From assembly GCA_016906335.1 (NCBI GenBank), contig JADEYG010000006.1, forward strand, positions 1 through 64,000: 64,000 nucleotides of DNA, in the 5' to 3' direction. The notes under the pieces are model-generated. The model made no database searches, was not told the origin of the DNA, and saw only the letters and a list, made by a program, of their open reading frames with translations. Below, piece after piece: positions 4,861 to 61,846 of this stretch (position 1 is its first letter; each line of letters begins with the position of its first letter). This DNA comes from Novakomyces olei. Taxonomy: Eukaryota. The translations under genes and the position numbers were made by a program.

Positions 4861-6282
4861 TAATTCTTAGCCCCATATATATATATATATATGTTAACTG
4901 GATAAAAACGGTGAAGGTTATAATAAAGATTATAAATAACACCGTGGTAATCATAATAATAAATAAATATGACACTGTAACGACTAAATAAAATAAAATA
5001 AATTTGACTAACAAGTTATATATAATATATTATATATAAAATAATAGTTGGTAATACTTCCAGCAACAATATAATAATATGGTTATTTATATATTTTTGA
5101 ATATATATATCCTTATTAATTGTATATAATATAGATAATTAATAAATAAAAAATAATAAAACAAATAATGATAAAACAAAGAATATTAGAATATTAGAAG
5201 ATTTAATAAAATTAAGATTAATAACACCATTAAAACCATTATCAAATGATATTTTAAAGATAATAGAAAAAAACTTATTAAAATATAAAATATTAAATGT
5301 AGATAATATAAATGATGAGTATATAAGTGGTATAATACAATCAGATGGTAGTTTTTCATTAACTATAAGAAAAACAAGAGATTATATACATATAGTACCA
5401 AAATTTACATTAAGATTAAATAAGAATAATAAAGATTTGATATTAAAAATTAAAAGTGTATTAGGTGATGTAGGTAATTGAAGTTTAAATAAGAAAGATA
5501 ATACAATATGTTATGAAGTGACAAAATTAAAAGATTTAGATCAAGTAATAATACCTTTTTTTACAAAAAATGATTTAAAAAGTAATAAACATTTAAATAG
5601 TTTTATAATATTAAAATACATTGTATCAATAATGAAAAGAAAACTTCATATTAAGGATAATAGATTATTGTTAGATATGATAATATTAGGTAGTAAAATG
5701 AATGATAATTATTTGTATAAAGATATACATAAAAAATCAATAAATATAATTCATAATGATGAAAAATATAAAAAAGATATGATGAAATATGTAAGATATT
5801 TAAATAAAAGTCAACAAGATATTGTAATAGATCAATTATTAACAAAAAATACTGAATTAGAAATAAATAATATGATGTATAATTATAATCCTACATCATT
5901 TAACGCAATGTATTTGCATGGTTTAATAGATGGAGATGGATCTATTATAATATATAACTCTTTATCTAAATATGTAAGATTTACTATAAGTATAGCACAA
6001 GATTATACAAATTTAACATTACTTAAAGATTTATATAAATATTTTGGTGAAATAGGTAGTATAACTAAAATATCAAATAAAGGTTATAGATATGATATAA
6101 AAAGTAAAAAGGATATTATAGAAAAAGTAATACCTTTATTAGAATACAAATATAATAATAATATTCATTTAGGTGTATTAAAAGGTTATAAATTAATATT
6201 AATGAAAATAATATGGGATATAAAAAATATATAATATATATAAATAATTTATATATTGTTGAAGATATAGTCTAAATAAAAG
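4861..6282 (+). mobile_element. Group I intron in rnl at about the L2584 site, carrying a LAGLIDADG ORF
   Basis: Exon ...gagttgggt | taagaacgtcgcgagacag; core motifs aaaacggtgaagg, aacaccgtgg, ctgtaacgactaa, gaagatatagtcta. Confidence 0.88.
5146..6234 (+). CDS. Double-motif LAGLIDADG homing endonuclease (intronic); start codon uncertain
   Basis: Frame open from 5146 with TGA 5479 read as Trp; motifs YISGIIQSDGSF (~5320) and YLHGLIDGDGSI (~5911); no in-frame ATG upstream of motif 1. Confidence 0.8.
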
Positions 6283-8313: not shown

Positions 8314-8385
8314 GCAGATATAGGTTAATTGGTAAACTCAATGATTTCCATTCATTTGTTGTCTGTTCAAGTCAGATTATCTGTA
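8314..8385 (+). tRNA. trnG: tRNA-Gly(UCC)
   Basis: Acceptor gcagata/tatctgt; arm aatga-tttccat-tcatt. Confidence 0.92.
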
Positions 8386-11678: not shown

Positions 11679-13682
11679 ATGTATTTATGTATATTATTAT
11701 TACCATTATTAAGTTCAATATCGAGTGGATTATTAGGAAGAAAGATAGGTATAAGAGGTAGTCAGATATTATCAAGTACATTTATGATAATATCAATGTT
11801 AATAACATTATATACATATAAACATATAGTAATTGATGATAATATAATAACAATAAATATAATAAATTGATTAAATATAGAATCATTAAATATAAATTAT
11901 TTAATATTATTAGATTCTTTAAGTATATCAATGTTAATACCAATAACAATAATATCAACATTAGTACATATATATACAATATCATATATGAGTAGTGATC
12001 CTCATCAACAAAGATTTTTAAGTTATATATCATTATTTACATTTTTTATGATGTTATTAGTAACAGGTTCAAGTTATTTAATAATGTTTATAGGATGAGA
12101 AGGTATAGGTGTAAGTTCATTTTTATTAATAAATTTCTGGTTTCAAAGTATAGAATCAAATAAATCAAGTATTAGTGCTATATTAGTTAATAGAGTTGGA
12201 GATATATTTATAACAATATCAATAGCTTTAATATATTATACTTATGGTAATCATAATTATAATACAATTAATAGTATAAGTATTTATATAAATAATAATA
12301 CAATATTATTTACAATAGGTTTATGTTTATTATTAGGTAGTATGGCAAAATCAGCTCAAGTACCATTAAATAAATGGTTACCAGAATCTATGGTAGCACC
12401 AACACCTACATCTGCTTTATTACATGCAGCTACTTTAGTTACTGCTGGTGTATATTTATTAATTAGATCTTCTTATATTATAGAATTAAATGATACTTTA
12501 TTAATTATTATTATGTTTGTTGGTGGTTTAACAACTATTATTAGTGGTTTAATTGGAGTATTACAATATGATGTAAAAAGAATAATAGCATATAGTACTT
12601 GTAGTCAAATTGGTATGTGTTTTGTTTCTATAGGTATATCTAATTATAATTTATCTTTATATCATTTAATTAATCATAGTATGTATAAAGCTTTATTATT
12701 CTTATGTGCAGGTATAATAATTCATTCATTAAATGATGAACAAGATATTAGAAAAATGGGTGGTTTAATAAATTATTTACCATTTACTTATAGTTGTATG
12801 TTAATAGCTAGCTTTTCTTTAATGGCTATACCATCTTTAAGTGGTTATTATAGTAAAGATTTAATTATAGAATTAACTTATGGTAAATATTGTATAAGTT
12901 CAATAATATGTTTTTATTTAAGTTTAATTAGTGCTATAACAACTAGTTTATATTCTATGAAAATATTATATAATATTTTTTTAAATATACCAAATAATAG
13001 TAGAAAATTTAATTATATTAATTGTTTAGAAAGTGATATATTTATGATAATACCTTTAGTTTTATTAACTTTATTAAGTATATTTATTGGATATTTAACT
13101 TCAGATATATTTATTGGACCAGGTTCAATATTATATTCAGATACTTTATTTAATAAACCTTTTAGTAATAATATATTAGATTTAGAATTTAATATACCAA
13201 TTTATATAAAATTATTACCATTAATTGGTAGTATATTTTTTAGTTTATTATTATTATATTCATATGAAATATTACAAAATAAATTTATTAAAAATAAATA
13301 TAATAATATTGATATAAAATTAAGTAATATAAATTATATATTAAAAAGTAATAAATTAATATTAAATATTTTTACATTTATTAATCAAAGATTTTATCAT
13401 GATATTATATATAATAGATATTTAACTATTACACCTTTAAATTTAGGTTATGTATATTATAATATATTTGATAAAGGTATAATAAATAAAATAGGTCCAA
13501 ATGGATTATATTATACTTTAAAAAATTATTCATCTAATATTATTTATCTTAATAATGGTAAATTATTTAATTATATTATTTACTTATTATTATTAATTAT
13601 ATTAAGTTTTTATATAAGTTTCTTTAATATTTCTGATCAATTATTCTTATTATTCTTTATTATATCTTTATACTTTATATAA
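11679..13682 (+). CDS. nad5: NADH dehydrogenase subunit 5 (TGA at 11868 and 12096 read as Trp)
   Basis: Single continuous frame: GRKIG, DPHQQRF, G(W)[34 protein letters not shown]. Confidence 0.97.
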
Positions 13683-13884: not shown

Positions 13885-14095
13885 GAAATAAGAAATAAGT
13901 AATAAATACCTTTAACTATATTAAATATATTAATATATAATAATTCATAATAAATAAATATATTAATTATATATTAAAAATACTAAATATATTAATAATA
14001 TATCTTATTATTTATTTATATAATATAATATAATATAATATCAAAGTCTTTAAAATACATATAAATATATATATAAATATCAAAGTCTTTAAAAT

Positions 14096-14180
14096 ACATA
14101 TAACATATAACATATACATATAACATATAACATATACATATAACATATAACATATACATATAACATATAACATATACGTA
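14096..14180. repeat. 20-nt tandem repeat (taacatataacatatacata) x4
   Basis: Directly visible periodicity. Confidence 0.85.
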
Positions 14181-14399
14181 TATTATACTTAATATTATAT
14201 TAATTTATAGTTAGTTATAATAGTATTAATAATAATATATAATAATATATGAAATATATAATTATTATATACAAATATATAAGATATGAATATATATAAA
14301 TATATAAATATATTTAATATAATATATTTACTTTACAGTAGGTATATAATATATAATTAATAATTTAATATTGATAAATATAAATATTAAATAATATAA

Positions 14400-17300
14400 T
14401 ATAATATATTGCATATATTATATTCACTATATTAAAGTTTATAAAATATAAAAACATTAGATTTATTTATACATTTATATTATAGTTTATAATATCAAAT
14501 ATCTAAATATAATATATATATCTTATAATATCAAATATCTAAATAATATATATATATATTAACTATATAATAGTAACATTTAATATACATATACATATAA
14601 TATTTAATACTTATATAACATTTAATATACATATAACATTTAATATAAATATTAATATCAAAGTCTTTAAAATACATTTAATATACATTTAATATACATA
14701 TCTACAATATATAATATAGTTTATTTAATAATATAGTATATTTAATAATATAGTATATTTAATATAATATATTTTAGTTTATTTAATATATTATTATATT
14801 TAATATAATATATAATACTTTTAAAATAAGTATATTACTATTAATAATAACTTATAAATAATATTTAATATTAAATATATGGTATTTATTATATAATAAA
14901 AAATGTACTATTCTATTAAGTAGGATATATCTATCCTTTGTAATCAATAATGTATAATATTAGTAAAACATTAATATAATCTTGATAAACATAGCATAGC
15001 ATAGGTAAAAACTTGTTAAATATTAGTATAATATATAAATATATTGATATAGATATATAAATATATAAATATATAGGTATAGGTAGATATAGATATATAA
15101 TATATATATAATAATAATAGATATAGATAGATAGATATAGATAATAATATATAATATAGATATAGATAATAATATAATAATATATATAAATAATATAATA
15201 TATAATATAAATAATATAATATATAATATAAATAATATAATATATAATATATATAAGTATAATAATATATAAATATAATATCTACTGATATAATAGAATA
15301 TATATATATATTATATAATAATTATACATAATATAATATCTAGTAATATAATATATTACATATATTATATCTAATAATAATAGATAAATATAAAACATTA
15401 GATAATATTATACTTAATAATTAATATATATAATATAATAATATACCCTTATAATTAATATATTATAATATAATATATCTTATATATATATATAATATCT
15501 TATAAATAAATAATATAAGTATAAGTATATAATAATAAGTATATATACATTACTATAATAAGTATATACATAAATATATAATAAGATATACATATAATAG
15601 ATATAAATAATATATTAAATATATAACCAATATATATTAAATATAAATAATATTATAATAAATATAATATTACATGTATAATATAAATAATATATAAACA
15701 TATAAATATATAAATATATAAATATAAAGTTTATATGTTAAACATCATTTAACCATACCTGAACTATAATATTAAAGAATATACAATATATTTATTTATA
15801 GTAATAATATTAAAGAATATACAATATATTTATTTATAGTAATAAAATAATTAATTATATATATATACAACATATACATATATTAATTTATATATATATA
15901 CATATTAATTTATATATACATATTAATAAATAATATATTTAATATAATAATATATTCTTAAATATAAAAGTAATATATATTAAAATAATTAATAATTATA
16001 GTTATAATAATAATAATTAATATTATTATAGTAATAATTTAAAGATAATTATAATAAATAATATCAAATAATATAATATATGTAATATATTATATCTAAT
16101 AATAATATATAAAGTATAAAACATTTGTTATTATAATTAATTATATCTATAAATTATAAATATATTATTAATAAAATAATAATAATTTATATAAATTATA
16201 TTTATATATAATATACATATACATATAATATACATAGTTAATATTTTATATACATATATAATATCCATAGTTAATATTTTATATACATACTAAATATTTA
16301 GTACATATATATAATATAGATATATTTTATATAGATATTAATATATAATATAGATATATATATATATAATATATATAAAGATATAAAGATGTAATATACA
16401 TATATAAATATAATATAGATATATAAAATATTAAATAAATATATTAAATATAGTATATATATTAAATATAAATCTAAATATAATATATTAATATAATCCA
16501 GTAAATATAATTCAACCATACTTGAATAATAATATTAAAGAACTTATTAAATATAATAATATATTAAACATAATAATTTATTAAATAATATAATATAGAT
16601 AAATATATAAAATATATTAAATATCATAATTTATATATATAATTATAATTCTAATTGTTATAATTATAATTTATATTGTTATTATATAAATTATCCATTA
16701 ACTATAATTATATAATAAATCTAATAAAATAATATAATATATTGCATATATTATATCTAATAATAATAAATAAATATAAAAACATTTGATATTTTATTTA
16801 TTAATAATATTTATATTTATTAATAATATATAATTTAACTATAAATATATAAATATATAATATAGATATATAAATATGATATATGATATATAATATATAT
16901 ATATATAATATTAAAATAAATATATCTTTTCTATTATTTACAATAGATAAATATATTAAATATAATAAATATAAAATAATATAAAATAAATATAAATAAA
17001 AAATATAAATAAATTTAAAGTCTTTGATTATATTAATAAGAATCAATATATAATTTAAAAGATCTTAGATTATATATAATATATATAAATTATAAATTAA
17101 CATTACCTTTCCTTTATAGTAAATTATAAACTATATTAAATAATATATATTATAATATACTTAATATAATATACTTTATATTAAATATTAAATATAATAT
17201 ATTAAATATTTAATATTTAATAATATAATCTAATATAATCTAATATACATATACTTTTATATTAAATAAAATAATATAAAGTTAATATCTAATCTAATAT

Positions 17301-18440
17301 ATTAAATAAAATAATATAAAGTTAATATATAATATATATAATAATAATGTATATTAAATATATATATATATAATATTTAGATAATATACTTTATCTATAA
17401 AGTTAATAAATATAATATCAAATAATATAATATATTGCATATATTATATCTAATAGTTATAGATATATGTATAAAAACATTAGATATTTTAATAAAATAT
17501 ATAAATAATATATACAAATATATATATACATATAAATAATATATTTATAAATATAAATATAATATCTATAAACTAATAAATATAAAATATAAATAAATTT
17601 AAAGTCTTTGATATAATATAAAATATAAATAAATTTAAAGTCTTTGATATAATATTAATTATAAATAAATTTAAAGTCTTTGATATAATATTAATAAGAA
17701 TCTATATATTATTTAAGAAATATTAAATTAGATTTAATATAATAAATAATAATATATAATATAATATAATATAATATATTAAATATAATATATATAAGAT
17801 AATATTAATAGTATAAATAACATTATATAAATATAATATATATATATATTTTAATAAGTAATAAATAATAAATAATAAATAATAATATATAAATATTAAA
17901 TATATATAAAGATATAAATATTATTATTCTATAAAGATAGAATGATAGTAGGAGCAAAAATAATAACTATAAAAATAATAGTTATGTAAATAATTATATA
18001 AATAAAAATAATTATATAAATAAAAATAATTATATAAATAAAAATAATTATATAAATAAAAATAATTATATAAATAAAAATAATTATATAAATTTTTTGC
18101 ACCATAACTTATGTTTATATTAAAACTATATTTTATAGACTCATCATATATTTTATAGATTTATCTATTATCATATATATATTAAATATATATATATATT
18201 AATTATTTATATTTATAATATTATACTTTATATAATATATTATTAATATATCAAATCAAATACTTAATATTTTATACAATATACAATATAACAATATAAT
18301 ATAACAATATATTTAATATTAAATAAAATAATATAATACTTAATATAAGTTAAGTTATATATATTATAATATATATAATATATTACATATATTATATCTA
18401 ATATCTATATAAAGATATATAAAAACATTAGATTTATTTA
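14400..18440 (+). repeat. Six degenerate units spaced ~660-950 nt apart, marked by atattgcatatattatatctaata...taaaaacattagat
   Basis: Motif pair at ~14406, 15353, 16078, 16739, 17432, 18379. Confidence 0.7.
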
Positions 18441-19402
18441 ATTAAATTAAATTAGATTAATAACTTATAAAACTATTAATTAAAACTATATTAATATTTT
18501 AAAGTTATTATTAAATATAATAATATATAATAATATATAATAATATATAATAATATTTAATAATATATAATAATATTTAATATAAGCTTATTATTATATC
18601 ATAATAATATATTTGATATATATATATATATATATATAATTATTATAATAATATAATATATAATAATAATATATTTAATATAATTATAATATAAGATATA
18701 TATATAATAATGATAGTAATAATATATAAGTTTATAAAATAATACATATATTAAATATATGTATATGTATATAATATAAATATAAATATAAATATTAATA
18801 ATTAATATATAAATATAAATATAAATATTAATATAAATATAAATATAAATTATAGAGATATATAATTAAATATATAAATATAAATATAAATATAAATTAT
18901 AGAGATATATAATTAAATATATAACTTGATATCTGGTGAAAAAAATTTATATCTAAAATTTTTGCACCTACTTTAATATAACATTTATAATATTTTATTC
19001 ATTAACTATATACAAATATTTTATTTATTATTTATTAAACTTAATATAAATACTTTATTAAAACTTAATATAAATACTTAATTAATAATTAACAATGATC
19101 AATTTATATAATTATTTATTTTTAAAATAAAATAAAAGTTTTTAAAATAAAATAAAATAAAATAAAAGTTTTTAAAATAAAATAAAATAAAATACAATAA
19201 ATACATTATCATTATCATTATCATTATCATTATCATTATGATTATCATTATTATTATCATTATGATTATCATTATGATCATATATATAATATATATATAT
19301 AATTTAATTAAATAATAGGTTTTAAATAAAAATATATATAATTATTTATTAATTTTAACAATAAATTAAATACAATTACTAATAATTATATTTAATACTA
19401 AT

Positions 19403-23774: not shown

Positions 23775-23803
23775 ATATTATATAAATAATATATAAATAG
23801 ATA

Positions 23804-23878
23804 TGCAACTTAGTGTAATTAGGTATAACATAATTAACTCATTATTAATAGATTTAGGTTCAAATCCTAAAGTTGTAT
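23804..23878 (+). tRNA. trnM: tRNA-Met(CAU), probably the initiator
   Basis: Acceptor tgcaact/agttgta resembling yeast mitochondrial fMet; arm attaa-ctcatta-ttaat. Confidence 0.85.
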
Positions 23879-23954
23879 TATATATAATAATAATAATAAT
23901 AATAATAAATATATAAATTATATATATGTATATATTATAATTAAATATAAAATA

Positions 23955-24026
23955 AAAGGTATAATTTAATTGGTAGAATAAATGATTCCAAATCTTTTCG
24001 TGATAGTTCAAGTCTGTCTGCCTTTG
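23955..24026 (+). tRNA. trnW: tRNA-Trp(CCA)
   Basis: Acceptor aaaggta/tgccttt, G discriminator; arm aatga-ttccaaa-tcttt with CCA at 23988-23990. Confidence 0.9.
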
Positions 24027-24648: not shown

Positions 24649-25335
24649 ATGGAAAATATATTAACATTAGTAAATCATGGTATAAATAATTCAATATTAA
24701 TATTATCAATAACATCAATAATATTTAGTTATTTAGTAATAAGTACAAAGAATTCAGTAATATCAGTATTATATTTAATAGTATTATTTACAAATATAAG
24801 TATATATTTATTATTATTAGATTATACTTTTATAGGTTTAAGTTTAATAATAGTTTATATAGGTGCAATAGCTATATTATTTTTATTTGTAATAATGTTA
24901 TTAGATATATCTAAATTAGATATAGATATTAATAATGATAATAATAATATAAATATAAAAAAATCAAATGTAATAATATCTATATTATTATTATTAGTAT
25001 TAGCACCATTATATTTAATATTAAATTATAATTATAATATTACAAATATTAATAATCTATGGTTTTTATTTATATTAAATTTACCACTATTATTAATATA
25101 TAATATAAAAAATAATAGTTTATCTTTATTTAATAATTCAGATATATTAAATAATAATAATAATAATATATTAGATAATATTGATTATATATGAAATAAT
25201 AGTTTTATATCTATTATTGATTTACAATCTTTAGGTTATGTTATATTTAATATTTATCCTATAGCTTTCTTTATTATAGGTTTATTATTATTAATAGCTA
25301 TGATTGGATCAATTATTATAGTTAATAATAAATAA
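24649..25335 (+). CDS. nad6: NADH dehydrogenase subunit 6 (TGA at 25192 read as Trp)
   Basis: KNSVISVLYL, VYIGAIAILFLFVIMLL; after the TGA, LQSLGYVIF...LLLIAMIGSI. Confidence 0.95.
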
Positions 25336-26817: not shown

Positions 26818-27837
26818 ATGTCAATAATATTAAATATAATATTAGTATTAATAATATTTGTCCCATTATTGTTAGGAGTAGCATTTGTAACTATAGGAGA
26901 GAGAAAAGAGCTAGGTTCAATGCAAAGAAGATTAGGACCAAATTATGTAGGATATTATGGTTTATTACAAGCAATAAGTGATGCATTAAAATTAATATTA
27001 AAAGAGACAATATTACCAATTCATGCGAATAAATATTTATTTGTAATTGGACCAATATTAACATTAATATTTAGTTTATTAGGATGGTGTGTAATACCAT
27101 TAAATAATGGTATAACAATGTATGATTATAATTATGGTATATTATATTCAATAGCTATAAGTAGTTTATCAGTATATGGTATATTAATAGCAGGTTGGTC
27201 ATCAAATAGTAAATATGCATTTTTAGGTTCAATAAGATCAACAGCTCAATTAATAAGTTATGAATTAGTATTAAGTACTTGTATAACTATATTAATATTA
27301 ATTAATGGTTCAATAAATTATAGTAATATAGTTAGTTATCAATTTGGTATATATTATTATTTACCTTTATTTCCTATATTTATAATTTTTATGATTGGTG
27401 CTTTAGCTGAATGTAATAGAACACCTTTTGATTTACCAGAAGCTGAATCTGAATTAGTATCAGGTTTTAATACTGAACATAGTAGTACTATATTTGTATT
27501 CTTCTTTTTAGCAGAATATAGTAATATATTATTAATGAGTACTATTATGAGTATATATTTTATTGGTGGTTATTTAATACCTCATAACTTATTATTTATA
27601 TTAAATACTATATTACCTAATAATTATATATTATATAGTTTAATTCATAGTACTATAATTGGATTTAAAAGTTGTTTATTTGTTTTCTTTTATATTTGAG
27701 TTAGAGCTAGTTTCCCTAGAATTAGATATGATCAATTAATGTATACTTGTTGGTCTATATTCTTACCTATTGTTTTTGGTTTCGTTACTTTATATCCTTG
27801 CTTAATTTATATTTTAGCTAATCCAGTTCAATTATAA
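26818..27837 (+). CDS. nad1: NADH dehydrogenase subunit 1 (TGA at 27697 read as Trp)
   Basis: ERK.LGSMQRRLGPN, PFDLPEAESELVSGF, I(W)VRASFPRIRYDQLM. Confidence 0.98.
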
Positions 27838-28053
27838 TTATATCTAATATTTAATATCTATAATTATTATAATTATATTTATATTTATATCTAATATTAA
27901 CTATGATAATTATATACTTAATTATATATTAATAATAATATAAAGTAAATATAATAAATATTAAATATTTAAATATATATAATAAAAATAAATATATATA
28001 AATATAATATATATATATATATAATATATATATAAAATATATATGTATATAAA

Positions 28054-28125
28054 GTTGATATAGTATATTGGTTATTACAATAATCTCATAAGTTATAGAA
28101 AATAGTTCAATTCTATTTATCAACT
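28054..28125 (+). tRNA. trnM: tRNA-Met(CAU), probably the elongator
   Basis: Acceptor gttgata/tatcaac; arm ataat-ctcataa-gttat. Confidence 0.82.
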
Positions 28126-28743
28126 AATAATAATAATAAAATAATAAAAGTTTGATAAATAATAATATTAATAAAAGTTTGATAAATAATAATATTAATT
28201 GTTTATTATATAAAGATATTTAATATAATAATTAAAAGTTTACAAAATTATATTAAATTATATTAAATTATATTAAATTATATTAAATTATATTAAACTA
28301 TATTAGATAATCTTATATATATATAAATATAGGATAATAAAATAATAATGTTAATTATATTATAGATATTGGTATTATAAATATCTAATTATATTAAAGA
28401 AAATAAAAAATTTAAATTTTTTATTTTGGGAAAACAGTTTATATTATATATAACATTTTAATTAATCTTATTTAATATTTATTACTTATATTTACTTATT
28501 GTAAAGCTATTATACATTTAAATAAATATTATTAAATATTATATAAGTATTATAAAGTAATATTATAATTATAATATAATATTATAATATTATAATATAA
28601 ATATATATATATATAAGTAATATTAATATAATAATATATATAATATATATACCAAATTAATAAATATATAATAATAATATATACAATTTATAATTGATAT
28701 AATATAAGTATAAATATATATATAATATATATGTATATATCAA

Positions 28744-31814: not shown

Positions 31815-33683
31815 ATGTTATTTATTTCGATAATATCAATATTATATTTTATATCAAATATAGATAAAAATATAAATCAAATACAAATAAGTAGAATATC
31901 TATGATAGTAGTATTATGGTTAATATTTTTAATCTTAAATAATTATATATCATTAAATTTTAATAATATTATAGATATGAATTTATATAATGGTTTATTT
32001 CATATATCAAATGTTTTATTAACTTTAATTTTATTTATATTTATTATTAGTTTAATTTTATTAAGTATTAATAGTATTCAAATTTATAATAATTTTATTA
32101 ATAATTATATTTTATTAGTTAATAATATTTTATATAATAATAATAATAATAATATTAATAATAATAGTTTTAATATAAAAGAATTATTAATAAATAAATT
32201 ATCTATAAATAATATAATATATCCTTATACTTATAAATTAACAGATGATAATGATACATTTAATATAAATAATACAGATTATATATCTAAAACAAATAAA
32301 TTAAATATAAAATTAGATAGTTCTAATGAATATAATTTAATATTATTATTAAATATATTAAGTTTTATATTATTAATATGTAGTTATGATTTATTAAGTA
32401 TTATAATATCAATAGAATTAGTTAGTTTTAATTTATATATAATTACAAATAAGTTTACAGGTTTATTAAATAAAAATAAAATAACTTCTAATATGGAATC
32501 ATTAAATATAGATAATAATAATAATAATAATAATACTATAAGTTATTCAGTAATAAATTCAACAATATTATATTATTTATATAGTAGTATAGGTTCAAGT
32601 TTAATAATATTAGGAAGTTTTATAATATATTATTTATCAGGTTCATTAAATATATCATCAATAATTATGTCAAATAATATATATTATTCATATAATAGTA
32701 TATTTATAGATAAATCATTAGGTTTATATTTATCAATAATAATATTATTAATAGGTTTATTTTTAAAATCAGGTATAGCACCATTACATTTTTGGAGTCC
32801 ATATGTATATAGTAATAATTATATGCCAACAATATCATGGTTATATATAATAACTAAATTAGGTATATTACCAATAATAATATTTTTATTATATTATATA
32901 AATTTATTAGATAATAATATTATAGATAATAGTAATAATAATAATTTATTAAATATATTACCAATAAATGATTATATAAAATCTATAAGATATTTTATAG
33001 GAATAATAGGTATATTAAATTTAATAATAGGTACATTTAATGCATTATTAGAAAAGAATTTAGTAAGATTATTTGTTTATAGTTCAATATCACATTTAGG
33101 TTATATGTTATTATGTATAGTAAATATGAAAAATATGTATAGTATGTATTCAATAATATTTTATTTAATGCAAAATACAATTACTTCATTAACAATAATT
33201 TATATGATTTATATAATTAGTAATATTATTTGTAATAATTCATATAAATTTAATGATATATATAATATCAATATATTAAAAGGTTTTTATAAATATAATA
33301 AATATATATCAATATGTTTTATATTAAATATATTATCATTATTAGGTATACCACCATTTATAGGATTTTATGGTAAATGAAATTTATTAACAACTTTAAG
33401 TTATAATAATTATTATATCTTAATGTTAATAACTATTTTAATTAGTATAATAACTTCATTATATTATTTATATATAATAGAATTAATTATTATTAATGAT
33501 AAAAATAATTATAACTATTATATAAATAATATTATTTATAATAATTCTAATTTAATATCAAAATATAGTTATATTATAATTACATTATTAACAATGTATC
33601 AAGGTTTATATATATTTAATATAAATAATATTATAAATTTACAAATAGAAATGAGTATATTAAATTATTATGAATTAATATAA
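31815..33683 (+). CDS. nad2: NADH dehydrogenase subunit 2 (TGA at 33378 read as Trp), with Asn-rich insertions
   Basis: SIELVS, KSGIAPLHFWSP, RLFVYSSISHLG, GIPPFIGFYGK(W); both ORF-track pieces share one frame. Confidence 0.95.
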
Positions 33684-35675: not shown

Positions 35676-35749
35676 GGATAATGTTACATAATGGTTTATG
35701 TATTGGATTGCAAATCTAATTATTTAGAGTTCGAATCTCTCATTATCTT
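35676..35749 (+). tRNA. trnC: tRNA-Cys(GCA)
   Basis: Arm ttgga-ttgcaaa-tctaa; T-loop ttcgaat. Confidence 0.88.
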
Positions 35750-36155: not shown

Positions 36156-36227
36156 GAAACTATAGCTCAGTGGTTAGAGCGTGTTACTCATAATAACAAG
36201 ATATTGGTTCAATTCCAATTAGTTTTA
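36156..36227 (+). tRNA. Third CAU-anticodon tRNA, probably tRNA-Ile(CAU) reading AUA
   Basis: Acceptor gaaacta/tagtttt; D arm tagctcagtggttagagc; arm tgtta-ctcataa-taaca; amino-acid identity is inferred. Confidence 0.7.
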
Positions 36228-37473: not shown

Positions 37474-38304
37474 ATGACAATAATAAATAGAGAATATTTA
37501 AATGTATTAAAACAAAGATATCAGAAATATCCATTTCATATAGTATATCCAAGTCCTTGGCCATTTTCATTAAGTATGTCATTATTATATATGGCAATAA
37601 GTGGAGTATTATTTATGCATGATTTCAATGGAGGTATAATTTATTTAATAATAAATACGATATTATTATGTTTATCATTTTTCTTTTGGTTTAGAGATGT
37701 AAATATAGAGTCAGATTTTTTAGGGGATCATACATTTAGTGTACAAAAAGGTATAACAATGGGAACAGCATTATTTATAACTACTGAAGCTTTATTTTTC
37801 TTTGGAATATTTTGGGCTTATTTTCATAGTAGTTTAAGTCCAACAATAGAAATTGGTGCATCATGGCCACCAACAAATATAGAACCTATAAATGCTGCAG
37901 AATTACCATTATTAAATACAATAATATTATTAAGTTCTGGTGCATATGTTACATATTCACATCATAGTTTAATATTAGGTAATAGAATTGCAGCTATAAA
38001 TGGGTTAATTATTACTTTAATTTTAGCAGTAACTTTTACTATATGTCAATATATTGAATATACTAATGCTTCTTTTACTATTAGTGATTCAGTTTTTGGT
38101 AGTTGTTTCTATTTAGCTACTGGATTCCATTCTGCTCATGTTATTGTTGGTACAGTTTTCTTATTAGTTGGTTACTTTAGATTATTACATTATAAATTAA
38201 CAGATAATCATCATATTGGTTATGAATCAGCTATATTATATTGGCATTTCGTTGATGTTGTATGGTTATTTGTTTTAATTAGTATTTATTTCTGGGGTAG
38301 TTAA
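37474..38304 (+). CDS. cox3: Cytochrome c oxidase subunit 3
   Basis: PFHIVYPSPWP, PLLNTIILLSSG, ATGFH, YWHFVDVVWLF. Confidence 0.99.
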   Translation: MTIINREYLNVLKQRYQKYPFHIVYPSPWPFSLSMSLLYMAISGVLFMHDFNGGIIYLIINTILLCLSFFFWFRDVNIESDFLGDHTFSVQKGITMGTALFITTEALFFFGIFWAYFHSSLSPTIEIGASWPPTNIEPINAAELPLLNTIILLSSGAYVTYSHHSLILGNRIAAINGLIITLILAVTFTICQYIEYTNASFTISDSVFGSCFYLATGFHSAHVIVGTVFLLVGYFRLLHYKLTDNHHIGYESAILYWHFVDVVWLFVLISIYFWGS

Positions 38305-49532: not shown

Positions 49533-59045
<9,513 letters not shown>

Positions 59046-59950: not shown

Positions 59951-61846
59951 ATGAATATATTTACAAATTATATAGATAATATATATTATTATATAGATAA
60001 TAATTATATAAATTATATATATAATATAATATTAATGTTATATATATTACCAATAATAAATATAATGTTAAATCAATTATTAATTAAGAGTGAATCATTT
60101 GAATTAGAATTAAATAATATTAATAATAATAATATTTTAAATATATATACAAAAATAAATAAGAGATATATAATAAATAAAAGTATATTATATATATCAA
60201 TAATATTTAGTATAATAGTATATTTATTAGTATTATCATTATTATTAATATATAATACAAATTTAGGTTTAATAGAATATAATATAAATATATTAGATAA
60301 TAATTTATTAAATTTTGATATAGGTTTAAGTTCAATTAGTTTATCATTTATATTATTAAATAGTTTAATAATAGTATTAATATTATTATATAATTATAAG
60401 AATTATAATAATTTCCAAAGTAATATATTAAGTAATAATTCAATAACAATAAATAATAGTATAATGCATACATATATATTTATATTATTATTATTATTAA
60501 TAAATTCAGTATTTATAGTAAGAAATACATTATTATTCTATGTATTTTTTGAATCATTTTTACCAATATTATTTATATTAGTTGGTATATATGGATCATA
60601 TAATAGAATAACAGCAAGTTATTATTTATTTATATATACATTATTTGGAAGTATGTTTTTATTAATAGGAATATGTATGTTAAAATATACAACAAATTCA
60701 TTTAATTATAGTTATATAAGTTCAATGATAATACCGTTACATACACAATATATAATATGATTATGTATATTTATAGGATTTGTAGTAAAGATACCATTAT
60801 TTCCCTTTCATATATGGTTACCATTAGCACATTCAGAATCAGTATTAAGTGGTTCAATAATATTAGCAGCATTAGTATTAAAAGTTGCAATATATGGAGT
60901 ATTAGAATTTTTAATAAATTTATTACCATTAGCAAATATATATTATAATAATTTATTAACATTTTTAAGTATAATAACATTAATTTATTCATCAATAATA
61001 ACTTTAAGACAAATTGATAATAAAGTTATAATAGCTTATAGTTCTGTAGCACATATGGCTATAGTTATAATAGGTATATCATCAAATAATTTATTAGGTT
61101 TAAATGGTTCAATATTATTAAGTATTAGTCATGGTTTTGTTAGTCCAGCATTATTTATTATATTTGGTGGTATATTATATGATAGATATCATACAAGATT
61201 ATTAGATTATTATAGAGGTATTAGTACTTATTATCCTTTATTATCAATATTATTCTTTATTTTTGCTTTAGGTAATATGGGTACACCTACTACTTTAAAT
61301 TTTGTAGGAGAATTATTCTGTATTATTGGTTCAATGAATAATAATATTATTATATCAGTTTTAGCTTCAACTACTTTAGTTCTTAGTGCTAGTTATACTA
61401 TATGGTTATATAATAGAATTACTGGTGGTTATATTACTATATCAAATATTATTAATAATTATAAATTATTTAATTATAATTCAAATAATTTAAAATCTAT
61501 TAAAGATATAATAAACTTAAAATATGATATAAAAAATAATAAAAATAATAAAAAAAATAAAAATAAAGTAAATAATAATTTAAAAACTTTAAATAATAAA
61601 ATAGTTAATAATAATAAAATAGTTAATAATAAAAAAACAAAAACTTTAAAAAATAAATTAATTAATTCTTTACCTCAAATGATTATTAATAATTATAATA
61701 ATAATATACTAAATATATCTTATGATATTAATAGATGTGAAGGTTATATATTATTAACATTATTATATTTAACTATATTATTAGGTTTATTACCTAATGT
61801 TTTAATTAATATATTAAATAATGATTTATCTTATTATTTATTCTAA
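59951..61846 (+). CDS. nad4: NADH dehydrogenase subunit 4 (TGA at 60758 read as Trp)
   Basis: FYVFFES, YTLFGSMFLL, KIPLFPFHIWLPLAH, KVIIAYSSVAHM, SHGFVSPALF, LYDRYHTR. Confidence 0.96.

Follow-up and report, generated by a model that had tools for sequence, protein, structure and literature searches.

How UGA codons that appear to specify tryptophan may be decoded in a mitochondrion whose only visible tRNA-Trp carries a CCA anticodon is the question raised by the tRNA gene described here. The window, meaning the whole 64,000-base stretch of DNA that was analysed, has a G+C content of 11.95% (about 12%) and covers part of a fungal-type mitochondrial genome, an assignment based on the adjoining genes nad4L-nad5, nad2-nad3 and atp8-atp6, together with best matches that are fungal complex I chains of solved structures. 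Every recognised gene lies on the + strand. The order begins with rnl (whose intron has an ORF), a tRNA cluster, atp9, nad4L and nad5, followed by trnR(UCU), trnV, atp8, atp6, trnH, trnE, trnM, trnW and trnI; it continues with nad6, nad1, trnM, nad2, nad3, trnC, trnY, trnM, trnP, cox3 and trnQ, and ends with rns, cox1 (interrupted by one intron of group II and several of group I), nad4 and trnK. A search of 5.8 billion proteins, in which the COX3 of the window itself was not among the matches, gave a best COX3 relative of 62-63% identity. Neither cob, cox2 nor trnS(GCU) was found within the 64-kb window, yet AGY codons occur 180 times in the core genes, which indicates that the genome is larger than the window. 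The positions of all the features discussed are collected in Table 1.

Table 1. Features of the 64,000-base window, numbered from its first base
Feature	Positions	Strand	Observation
tRNA-Trp, anticodon CCA	23955-24026	+	72 nt; ARAGORN; Rfam RF00005, 52.3 bits
TGA, nad5 codon 64	11868-11870	+	Trp in 3 of 4 homologues listed, Tyr in 1
TGA, nad5 codon 140	12096-12098	+	Invariant Trp of GWEG, 4 of 4 homologues listed
TGA, nad6 codon 182	25192-25194	+	Variable region, not alignable
TGA, nad1 codon 294	27697-27699	+	Invariant Trp of IWVRA, 4 of 4 homologues listed
TGA, nad2 codon 522	33378-33380	+	Position not conserved, Leu or Gln in homologues listed
TGA, cox1 exon 2	52751-52753	+	Invariant Trp of GTGWTVY, 3 of 3 homologues listed
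TGA, nad4 codon 270	60758-60760	+	Trp in 2 Yarrowia-type chains, Phe in the third listed
cox3	37474-38304	+	TGG 7, TGA 0
rnl intron LAGLIDADG ORF	5146-6231	+	TGA 1, TGG 1
cox1 group II intron ORF, maturase domain	49788-52115	+	TGA 4, TGG 2
cox1 intron LAGLIDADG ORF	53105-54112	+	TGA 2, TGG 0
cox1 intron LAGLIDADG ORF	57188-58423	+	TGA 2, TGG 0
First cox1 intron, group II	49788-52571	+	Maturase ORF in frame with exon 1
Domain V/VI match of that intron	52495-52571		59.6 bits
Apparent cox1 micro-exon TYYVVA	~57170-57187	+	Six codons; borders placed by eye from translation
tRNA-Gly(UCC)	8314-8385	+	Anticodon stem perfectly paired
trnC(GCA)	35677-35748	+	Rfam, 46.8 bits
tRNA, anticodon CAU	23803-23879	+	77 nt; D arm irregular in the ARAGORN parse
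tRNA, anticodon CAU	28053-28126	+	
tRNA, anticodon CAU	36156-36227	+	
trnR(UCU)-trnV spacer	13917-18921		~5 kb; low-complexity AT-repeat DNA
nad2	31815-33683	+	622 aa (469-571 aa in solved homologues)
nad4	59951-61846	+	631 aa (470-542 aa in solved homologues)

UGA codons in the core genes

The initial annotation had placed seven in-frame TGA codons in the core genes, several of them at Trp residues described as invariant (in the motifs GWE, IWVRA and GTGWTVY), and all seven were located and found to be in frame: two in nad5 and one each in nad6, nad1, nad2, cox1 and nad4. The frames continue across each TGA without any shift, with homology to solved structures on both sides wherever the sequences can be aligned. 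At the three motifs, Trp is present in every homologue listed, and two further sites are mostly Trp, so that homologues carry this residue at four or five of the seven positions; codon 522 of nad2 and codon 182 of nad6 give no information on the inserted residue. These alignments indicate that UGA specifies Trp in this mitochondrion, an assignment that is well supported at five sites. As for termination, TAA is the stop codon in 11 of 11 intronless genes. A possible rule on the base that follows UGA was also considered and rejected, since the seven core sites have T, G, A, G, A, T and A in that position, where the base after the cox1 TGA is deduced from the Thr that comes next.

The Trp codons of the core genes comprise 27 TGG and 7 TGA (20.6% TGA), counts that are approximate, resting as they do on cox1 exon borders placed from peptide landmarks. 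An earlier count by hand had given about 27 TGG and had described this number as the opposite of what AT pressure predicts, which is borne out by the behaviour of the remaining codons: the other two-fold A/G pairs in the 3,924 core codons include 858 that end in A and 23 that end in G (97.4% A), GC3 is 5.9% over the same codons, and the binomial probability of finding seven or fewer TGA among 34 Trp codons is 8e-37. The preference for TGG over TGA is thus strong and runs counter to the AT bias. A TGA share of 20.6%, as compared with 97.4% of A-ending codons elsewhere, indicates that TGG is actively held by selection and that UGA is a poor codon in these genes.

The four intron ORFs show a different usage, with nine TGA and three TGG against the seven and 27 of the core genes, so that UGA is enriched in the intron ORFs (Fisher p = 0.0013). 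Among the core genes themselves, every nad gene with Trp has one or two TGA, and Trp codons are lacking in nad3, nad4L, atp6, atp8 and atp9. The initial annotation had set the nad genes against cox3 and read the difference as a possible sign of translational tuning. Its counts are correct; the tuning does not follow from them, since the contrast between nad and cox genes (6 of 17 Trp codons as TGA in the former and 1 of 17 in the latter) is not significant and can be taken as suggestive only (Fisher p = 0.085).

The tRNA-Trp gene

The gene is mitochondrially encoded and has a CCA anticodon, and ARAGORN and Rfam agree with the earlier statement that it is the only tRNA-Trp visible, within the 64-kb window. 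Its acceptor stem has seven pairs, one of them G-U, followed by the discriminator G73, and the T arm is regular. The anticodon loop reads UUCCAAA and thus contains the A36-A37-A38 motif. The D stem includes U11-A24 and U13-G22, whereas the anticodon stem is formed by A27-U43, A28-U42, G30-C40 and A31-U39, with an internal U29.U41 mismatch at its third position. A 50-nt stretch of the gene gave no match in viral_contigs.

Both U11-A24 and the U29.U41 mismatch had been pointed out in the initial annotation as suppressor-like, the former for its resemblance to the Hirsh UGA-suppressor change and the latter for its resemblance to the shortened anticodon stem of Blastocrithidia. Both are present, but neither comparison is supported. 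U11-A24 occurs in 8 of the 22 tRNAs found by ARAGORN, more often than any other combination at 11-24, and is therefore more likely to be the local default than a derived change of the Hirsh type. Regarding the mismatch, tRNA-Trp is alone among the 22 ARAGORN tRNAs in having, inside the anticodon stem, two opposed bases that form neither a Watson-Crick nor a G-U pair, and terminal U.U pairs are found in two others, Leu-UAA at 31:39 and Ile-GAU at 27:43. The nearest-neighbour energy of the tRNA-Trp anticodon stem-loop is +1.1 kcal/mol, which ranks 16th of 23, with seven tRNAs being weaker, so that by the standard of this genome the stem is of no exceptional weakness. Thermodynamic folding of tRNA-Trp alone gave z = -0.6, with the D and anticodon arms not formed, a measure that is uninformative for tRNAs as AT-rich as these. 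The U29.U41 mismatch is real but unexplained, and it is not evidence of suppressor design. As a separate observation, tRNA-Gly(UCC) and tRNA-Trp(CCA) have the same 5′ strand in their anticodon stems (AAUGA); the 3′ strand is UCAUU in tRNA-Gly and UCUUU in tRNA-Trp, where it gives rise to the mismatch.

A second tRNA able to pair with UGA was sought across the window. No tRNA with a UCA anticodon was found in the 64 kb by ARAGORN in its standard, intron, mitochondrial and moderately relaxed modes, nor was any found adjoining trnW(CCA). Rfam, taken down to E = 10, returned 23 tRNA matches, which correspond to the 22 ARAGORN genes plus trnC, and no further tRNA in the window. Very relaxed ARAGORN settings, which gave 282 and 925 candidate rows in all, did include a few candidates with a 'tca' anticodon; these were discarded either as AT-only noise of 6-10% G+C lacking a tRNA signature or for lying inside nad4 or an intron ORF. 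The trnC(GCA) gene itself is missed by the standard ARAGORN run and found in mitochondrial mode. The window also contains three tRNAs with a CAU anticodon, and ATA is used 468 times in the core genes; presumably, one of them is a tRNA-Ile in which a modified C34 allows AUA to be read.

Comparison with known systems

The combination of a single trnW(CCA) with rare UGA(Trp) codons reportedly goes back to the work of Bullerwell et al. in 2003 on the mitochondria of Schizosaccharomyces. In the accounts cited here, TGG is favoured in these mitochondria for lack of an efficient TGA reader (PMC7200024, PMC10085805). An encoded C34 in mitochondrial tRNA-Trp is described in plants and Schizosaccharomyces, and it is accompanied in S. 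pombe by a UGA(Trp) codon in rps3 (PMC7200024), where the tRNA is listed with i6A37 (PMC7200024, PMC10085805). The genome studied here is similar in its encoded C34, in its A36-A37-A38 loop motif, in the use of UGA for Trp with TGG strongly preferred against the AT bias, and in the concentration of UGA in accessory or intron genes. On the other hand, it encodes complex I (nad1-6 and nad4L), which means that it does not belong to a fission yeast. Moreover, the fission-yeast case as cited names only rps3 as a gene with UGA (PMC7200024), whereas here the codon is found in complex I subunits and cox1, that is, in six core respiratory genes and three times at invariant Trp. The presence of UGA at invariant Trp of core respiratory genes, together with the 12% G+C background, is what is distinctive of this genome.

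Basidiomycetes often keep trnW(CCA) and avoid UGA, as reported for Phlebia radiata (PMC4019555). Two of the genomes described carry a second tRNA: Hericium has trnW-CCA and trnW-UCA (PMC7800198), and Ganoderma has trnW-CCA and trnU-UCA, with UGA reported only in an intron protein and as absent from core genes (PMC3753355). The present genome resembles them in keeping trnW(CCA) and in having UGA in intron ORFs while it is rare in core genes, a codon absent or rare in those of basidiomycetes. In the basidiomycetes compared, core genes contain either no UGA or a single one in a non-conserved region, as opposed to 7 of 34 core Trp codons here, and the location of all window genes on one strand is a further difference from those genomes. 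UGA reassignment among fungi has been both repeated and incomplete.

In a survey of Saccharomycotina with codes 3 and 4, TGA is reported as the major Trp codon, at about 4:1 to 97% (PMC9154068). The genome described here agrees with code 4 or 3 with a trnW(UCA) in that UGA stands for Trp and does not serve as a stop, and departs from them in having TGA as the minor codon (7 of 34) and in the absence of a UCA tRNA from the window, so it does not have the features of code 4 with a cognate trnW(UCA). Editing of C34 to U in an imported tRNA-Trp is the solution of kinetoplastids, for which Alfonzo et al. in 1999 are said to be the source. There, a nuclear-encoded tRNA-Trp(CCA) is imported into the mitochondrion and edited at that position (PMC8677022). 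The likeness lies in a CCA anticodon in the gene combined with UGA as a Trp codon in the organelle; the difference is that the tRNA-Trp of the present genome is mitochondrially encoded.

A further group is formed by tRNA-Trp(CCA) with anticodon stems of 4 bp, described in Blastocrithidia nonstop, Condylostoma magnum and bacterial counterparts and defined by an unpinned 27:43 pair (PMC13092985). As in these tRNAs, a CCA anticodon faces UGA and the anticodon stem is imperfect. Unlike them, the tRNA-Trp described here has a Watson-Crick A27-U43 pair and its mismatch is internal, at 29:41, and UGA is disfavoured instead of freely used; with 27:43 intact, it is not of the Blastocrithidia type.

Decoding of UGA

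On balance, we judge it probable, although only modestly so, that UGA is here a rare and disfavoured Trp codon whose decoding falls to the tRNA made from the single mitochondrial trnW(CCA). This fits a reassignment of UGA that is at an intermediate stage and relies on an inefficient decoder, which is the part of the interpretation offered in the initial annotation that stands once the suppressor-like features of the tRNA are set aside. Fungal mitochondria presumably have no RF2-type release factor, so that UGA would never terminate translation; the lack of a UGA terminator in fungal mitochondria agrees with the distribution of mtRF2a, a factor whose consistent presence is reported for streptophytes, red algae, dictyostelids and some stramenopiles only (PMC3472500). 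A ribosome that pauses at UGA would in time receive tRNA-Trp(CCA), either through a third-position C34-A mispair, possibly aided by a modified A37 beside the weak A36-U pair, or through a putative chemical change of C34. Such a decoding would be slow or costly, and selection would retain TGG at most Trp sites of the highly expressed core genes, while the weakly constrained intron ORFs could drift to TGA or arrive already with it. We infer, in addition, that a second tRNA is absent from the part of the genome that lies outside the window.

The most direct alternative would place in that same part of the genome a second gene, trnW(UCA), recent or weakly expressed, whose product reads UGA by ordinary pairing. 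We regard this as possible, if on the whole unlikely. More genome and more tRNA genes do exist, as follows from the location of cob, cox2 and trnS(GCU) outside the window with 180 AGY codons in use, and there are precedents in fungi, such as Hericium coralloides and Ganoderma lucidum, which have both CCA and UCA tRNAs (PMC7800198, PMC3753355), and Wolfiporia cocos, with two Trp tRNA genes whose anticodons differ and are unnamed in the source cited (PMC7417453). Ganoderma has a UCA tRNA and core genes described as being without UGA, which indicates that the rarity of TGA alone does not exclude a UCA tRNA. However, an efficient UCA tRNA reads both UGA and UGG, and the retention of TGG at 27 of 34 Trp sites would then have no cause where GC3 is 5.9% and 97.4% of the other two-fold A/G codons end in A; the budding-yeast mitochondria with codes 3 and 4 are reported to prefer TGA strongly (PMC9154068), and the 64 kb contain no UCA tRNA, either beside trnW(CCA) or elsewhere. 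Given the extreme codon bias, any unseen UCA tRNA would be inefficient. A different possibility is that the tRNA-Trp(CCA) of the window is itself edited from C34 to U in the organelle, in a kinetoplastid-like manner, and exists as a mixed CCA/UCA pool, which we consider very unlikely. Partial editing would account for a UGA codon that can be used and is nonetheless disfavoured, but the DNA carries nothing that bears on editing, and we know of no case of C-to-U tRNA editing in fungal mitochondria. The mechanism does occur in kinetoplastid mitochondria (PMC8677022), whereas the account cited for S. pombe reports a primer extension with no difference at C34 (PMC7200024), a result that leaves a C34 modification without experimental support even in the model case.

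The body of the tRNA could also be regarded as a structural UGA suppressor, acting through its internal U29.U41 and A24 as in the Hirsh mutant or the 4-bp stems. The changes G24A, A9C and an unpinned 27:43, which lie outside the anticodon, are reported to raise UGA reading (PMC13092985), and the internal mismatch is unique to tRNA-Trp among the 22 ARAGORN tRNAs. Against this, U11-A24 is shared by eight of those tRNAs and so is not specific to tRNA-Trp, 27:43 is a normal A-U pair and the stability of the stem-loop is that of rank 16 of 23. As efficient UGA reading would moreover leave the strong retention of TGG unexplained, we find this explanation highly improbable. A related proposal is that the complete genome has no UCA tRNA and that tRNA-Trp(CCA), with U29.U41 and a modified A37, constitutes a natural organellar structural suppressor sustaining UGA at invariant Trp in six essential respiratory genes despite the most extreme AT pressure, which in our estimation is improbable. 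If this proposal were true, the principle that an imperfect anticodon stem lets CCA read UGA would apply not only to the top pair of the stem but also to an internal one, and a mitochondrion would join the nuclear and bacterial systems that follow it. Finally, UGA might never be translated, being either edited to UGG at the mRNA level or the product of nuclear copies or assembly errors. The frames that hold the 16 in-frame TGA (7 in core genes and 9 in intron ORFs) are otherwise unbroken, and the 11 intronless genes use TAA exclusively, which together fits a feature of the code, not scattered errors or decay; to our knowledge, there is no case of A-to-G editing in fungal mitochondria, and this last explanation seems scarcely credible.

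Decoding of UGA by the trnW(CCA) product thus remains the preferred reading, and its interest would lie in the stage of reassignment that it represents. The change of a stop codon to a sense codon is usually reconstructed afterwards; here, the intermediate state would persist, with UGA readable but costly and occupying 21% of the core Trp codons. This genome would offer a sharper natural test of how CCA reads UGA, whether by mispairing, by C34 chemistry or by effects of the tRNA body. Its value is that of one more, stronger example, and not of a new principle.

Other features of the window

The introns of cox1 include, in first place, a group II intron with a match to domains V/VI at its end and a maturase ORF in frame with exon 1. 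Further downstream, what appears to be a micro-exon of six codons lies between two introns and is in frame with the next LAGLIDADG ORF. The intron ORF of rnl matches a LAGLIDADG endonuclease and not rps3, a gene that was not recognised anywhere in the window. The core genes contain no CGN codons (0 of 3,924) and the window has no trnR(ACG), both of which would fit a loss of the CGN family. The long spacer between trnR(UCU) and trnV, which has neither an ORF nor an RNA match, is occupied by arrays with periods of 2 to 59 (Tandem Repeats Finder). Lastly, the nad2 and nad4 products, much longer than their solved homologues, contain long insertions rich in Asn, Ile and Lys, and nad4 has in addition a low-complexity stretch near its C-terminus.
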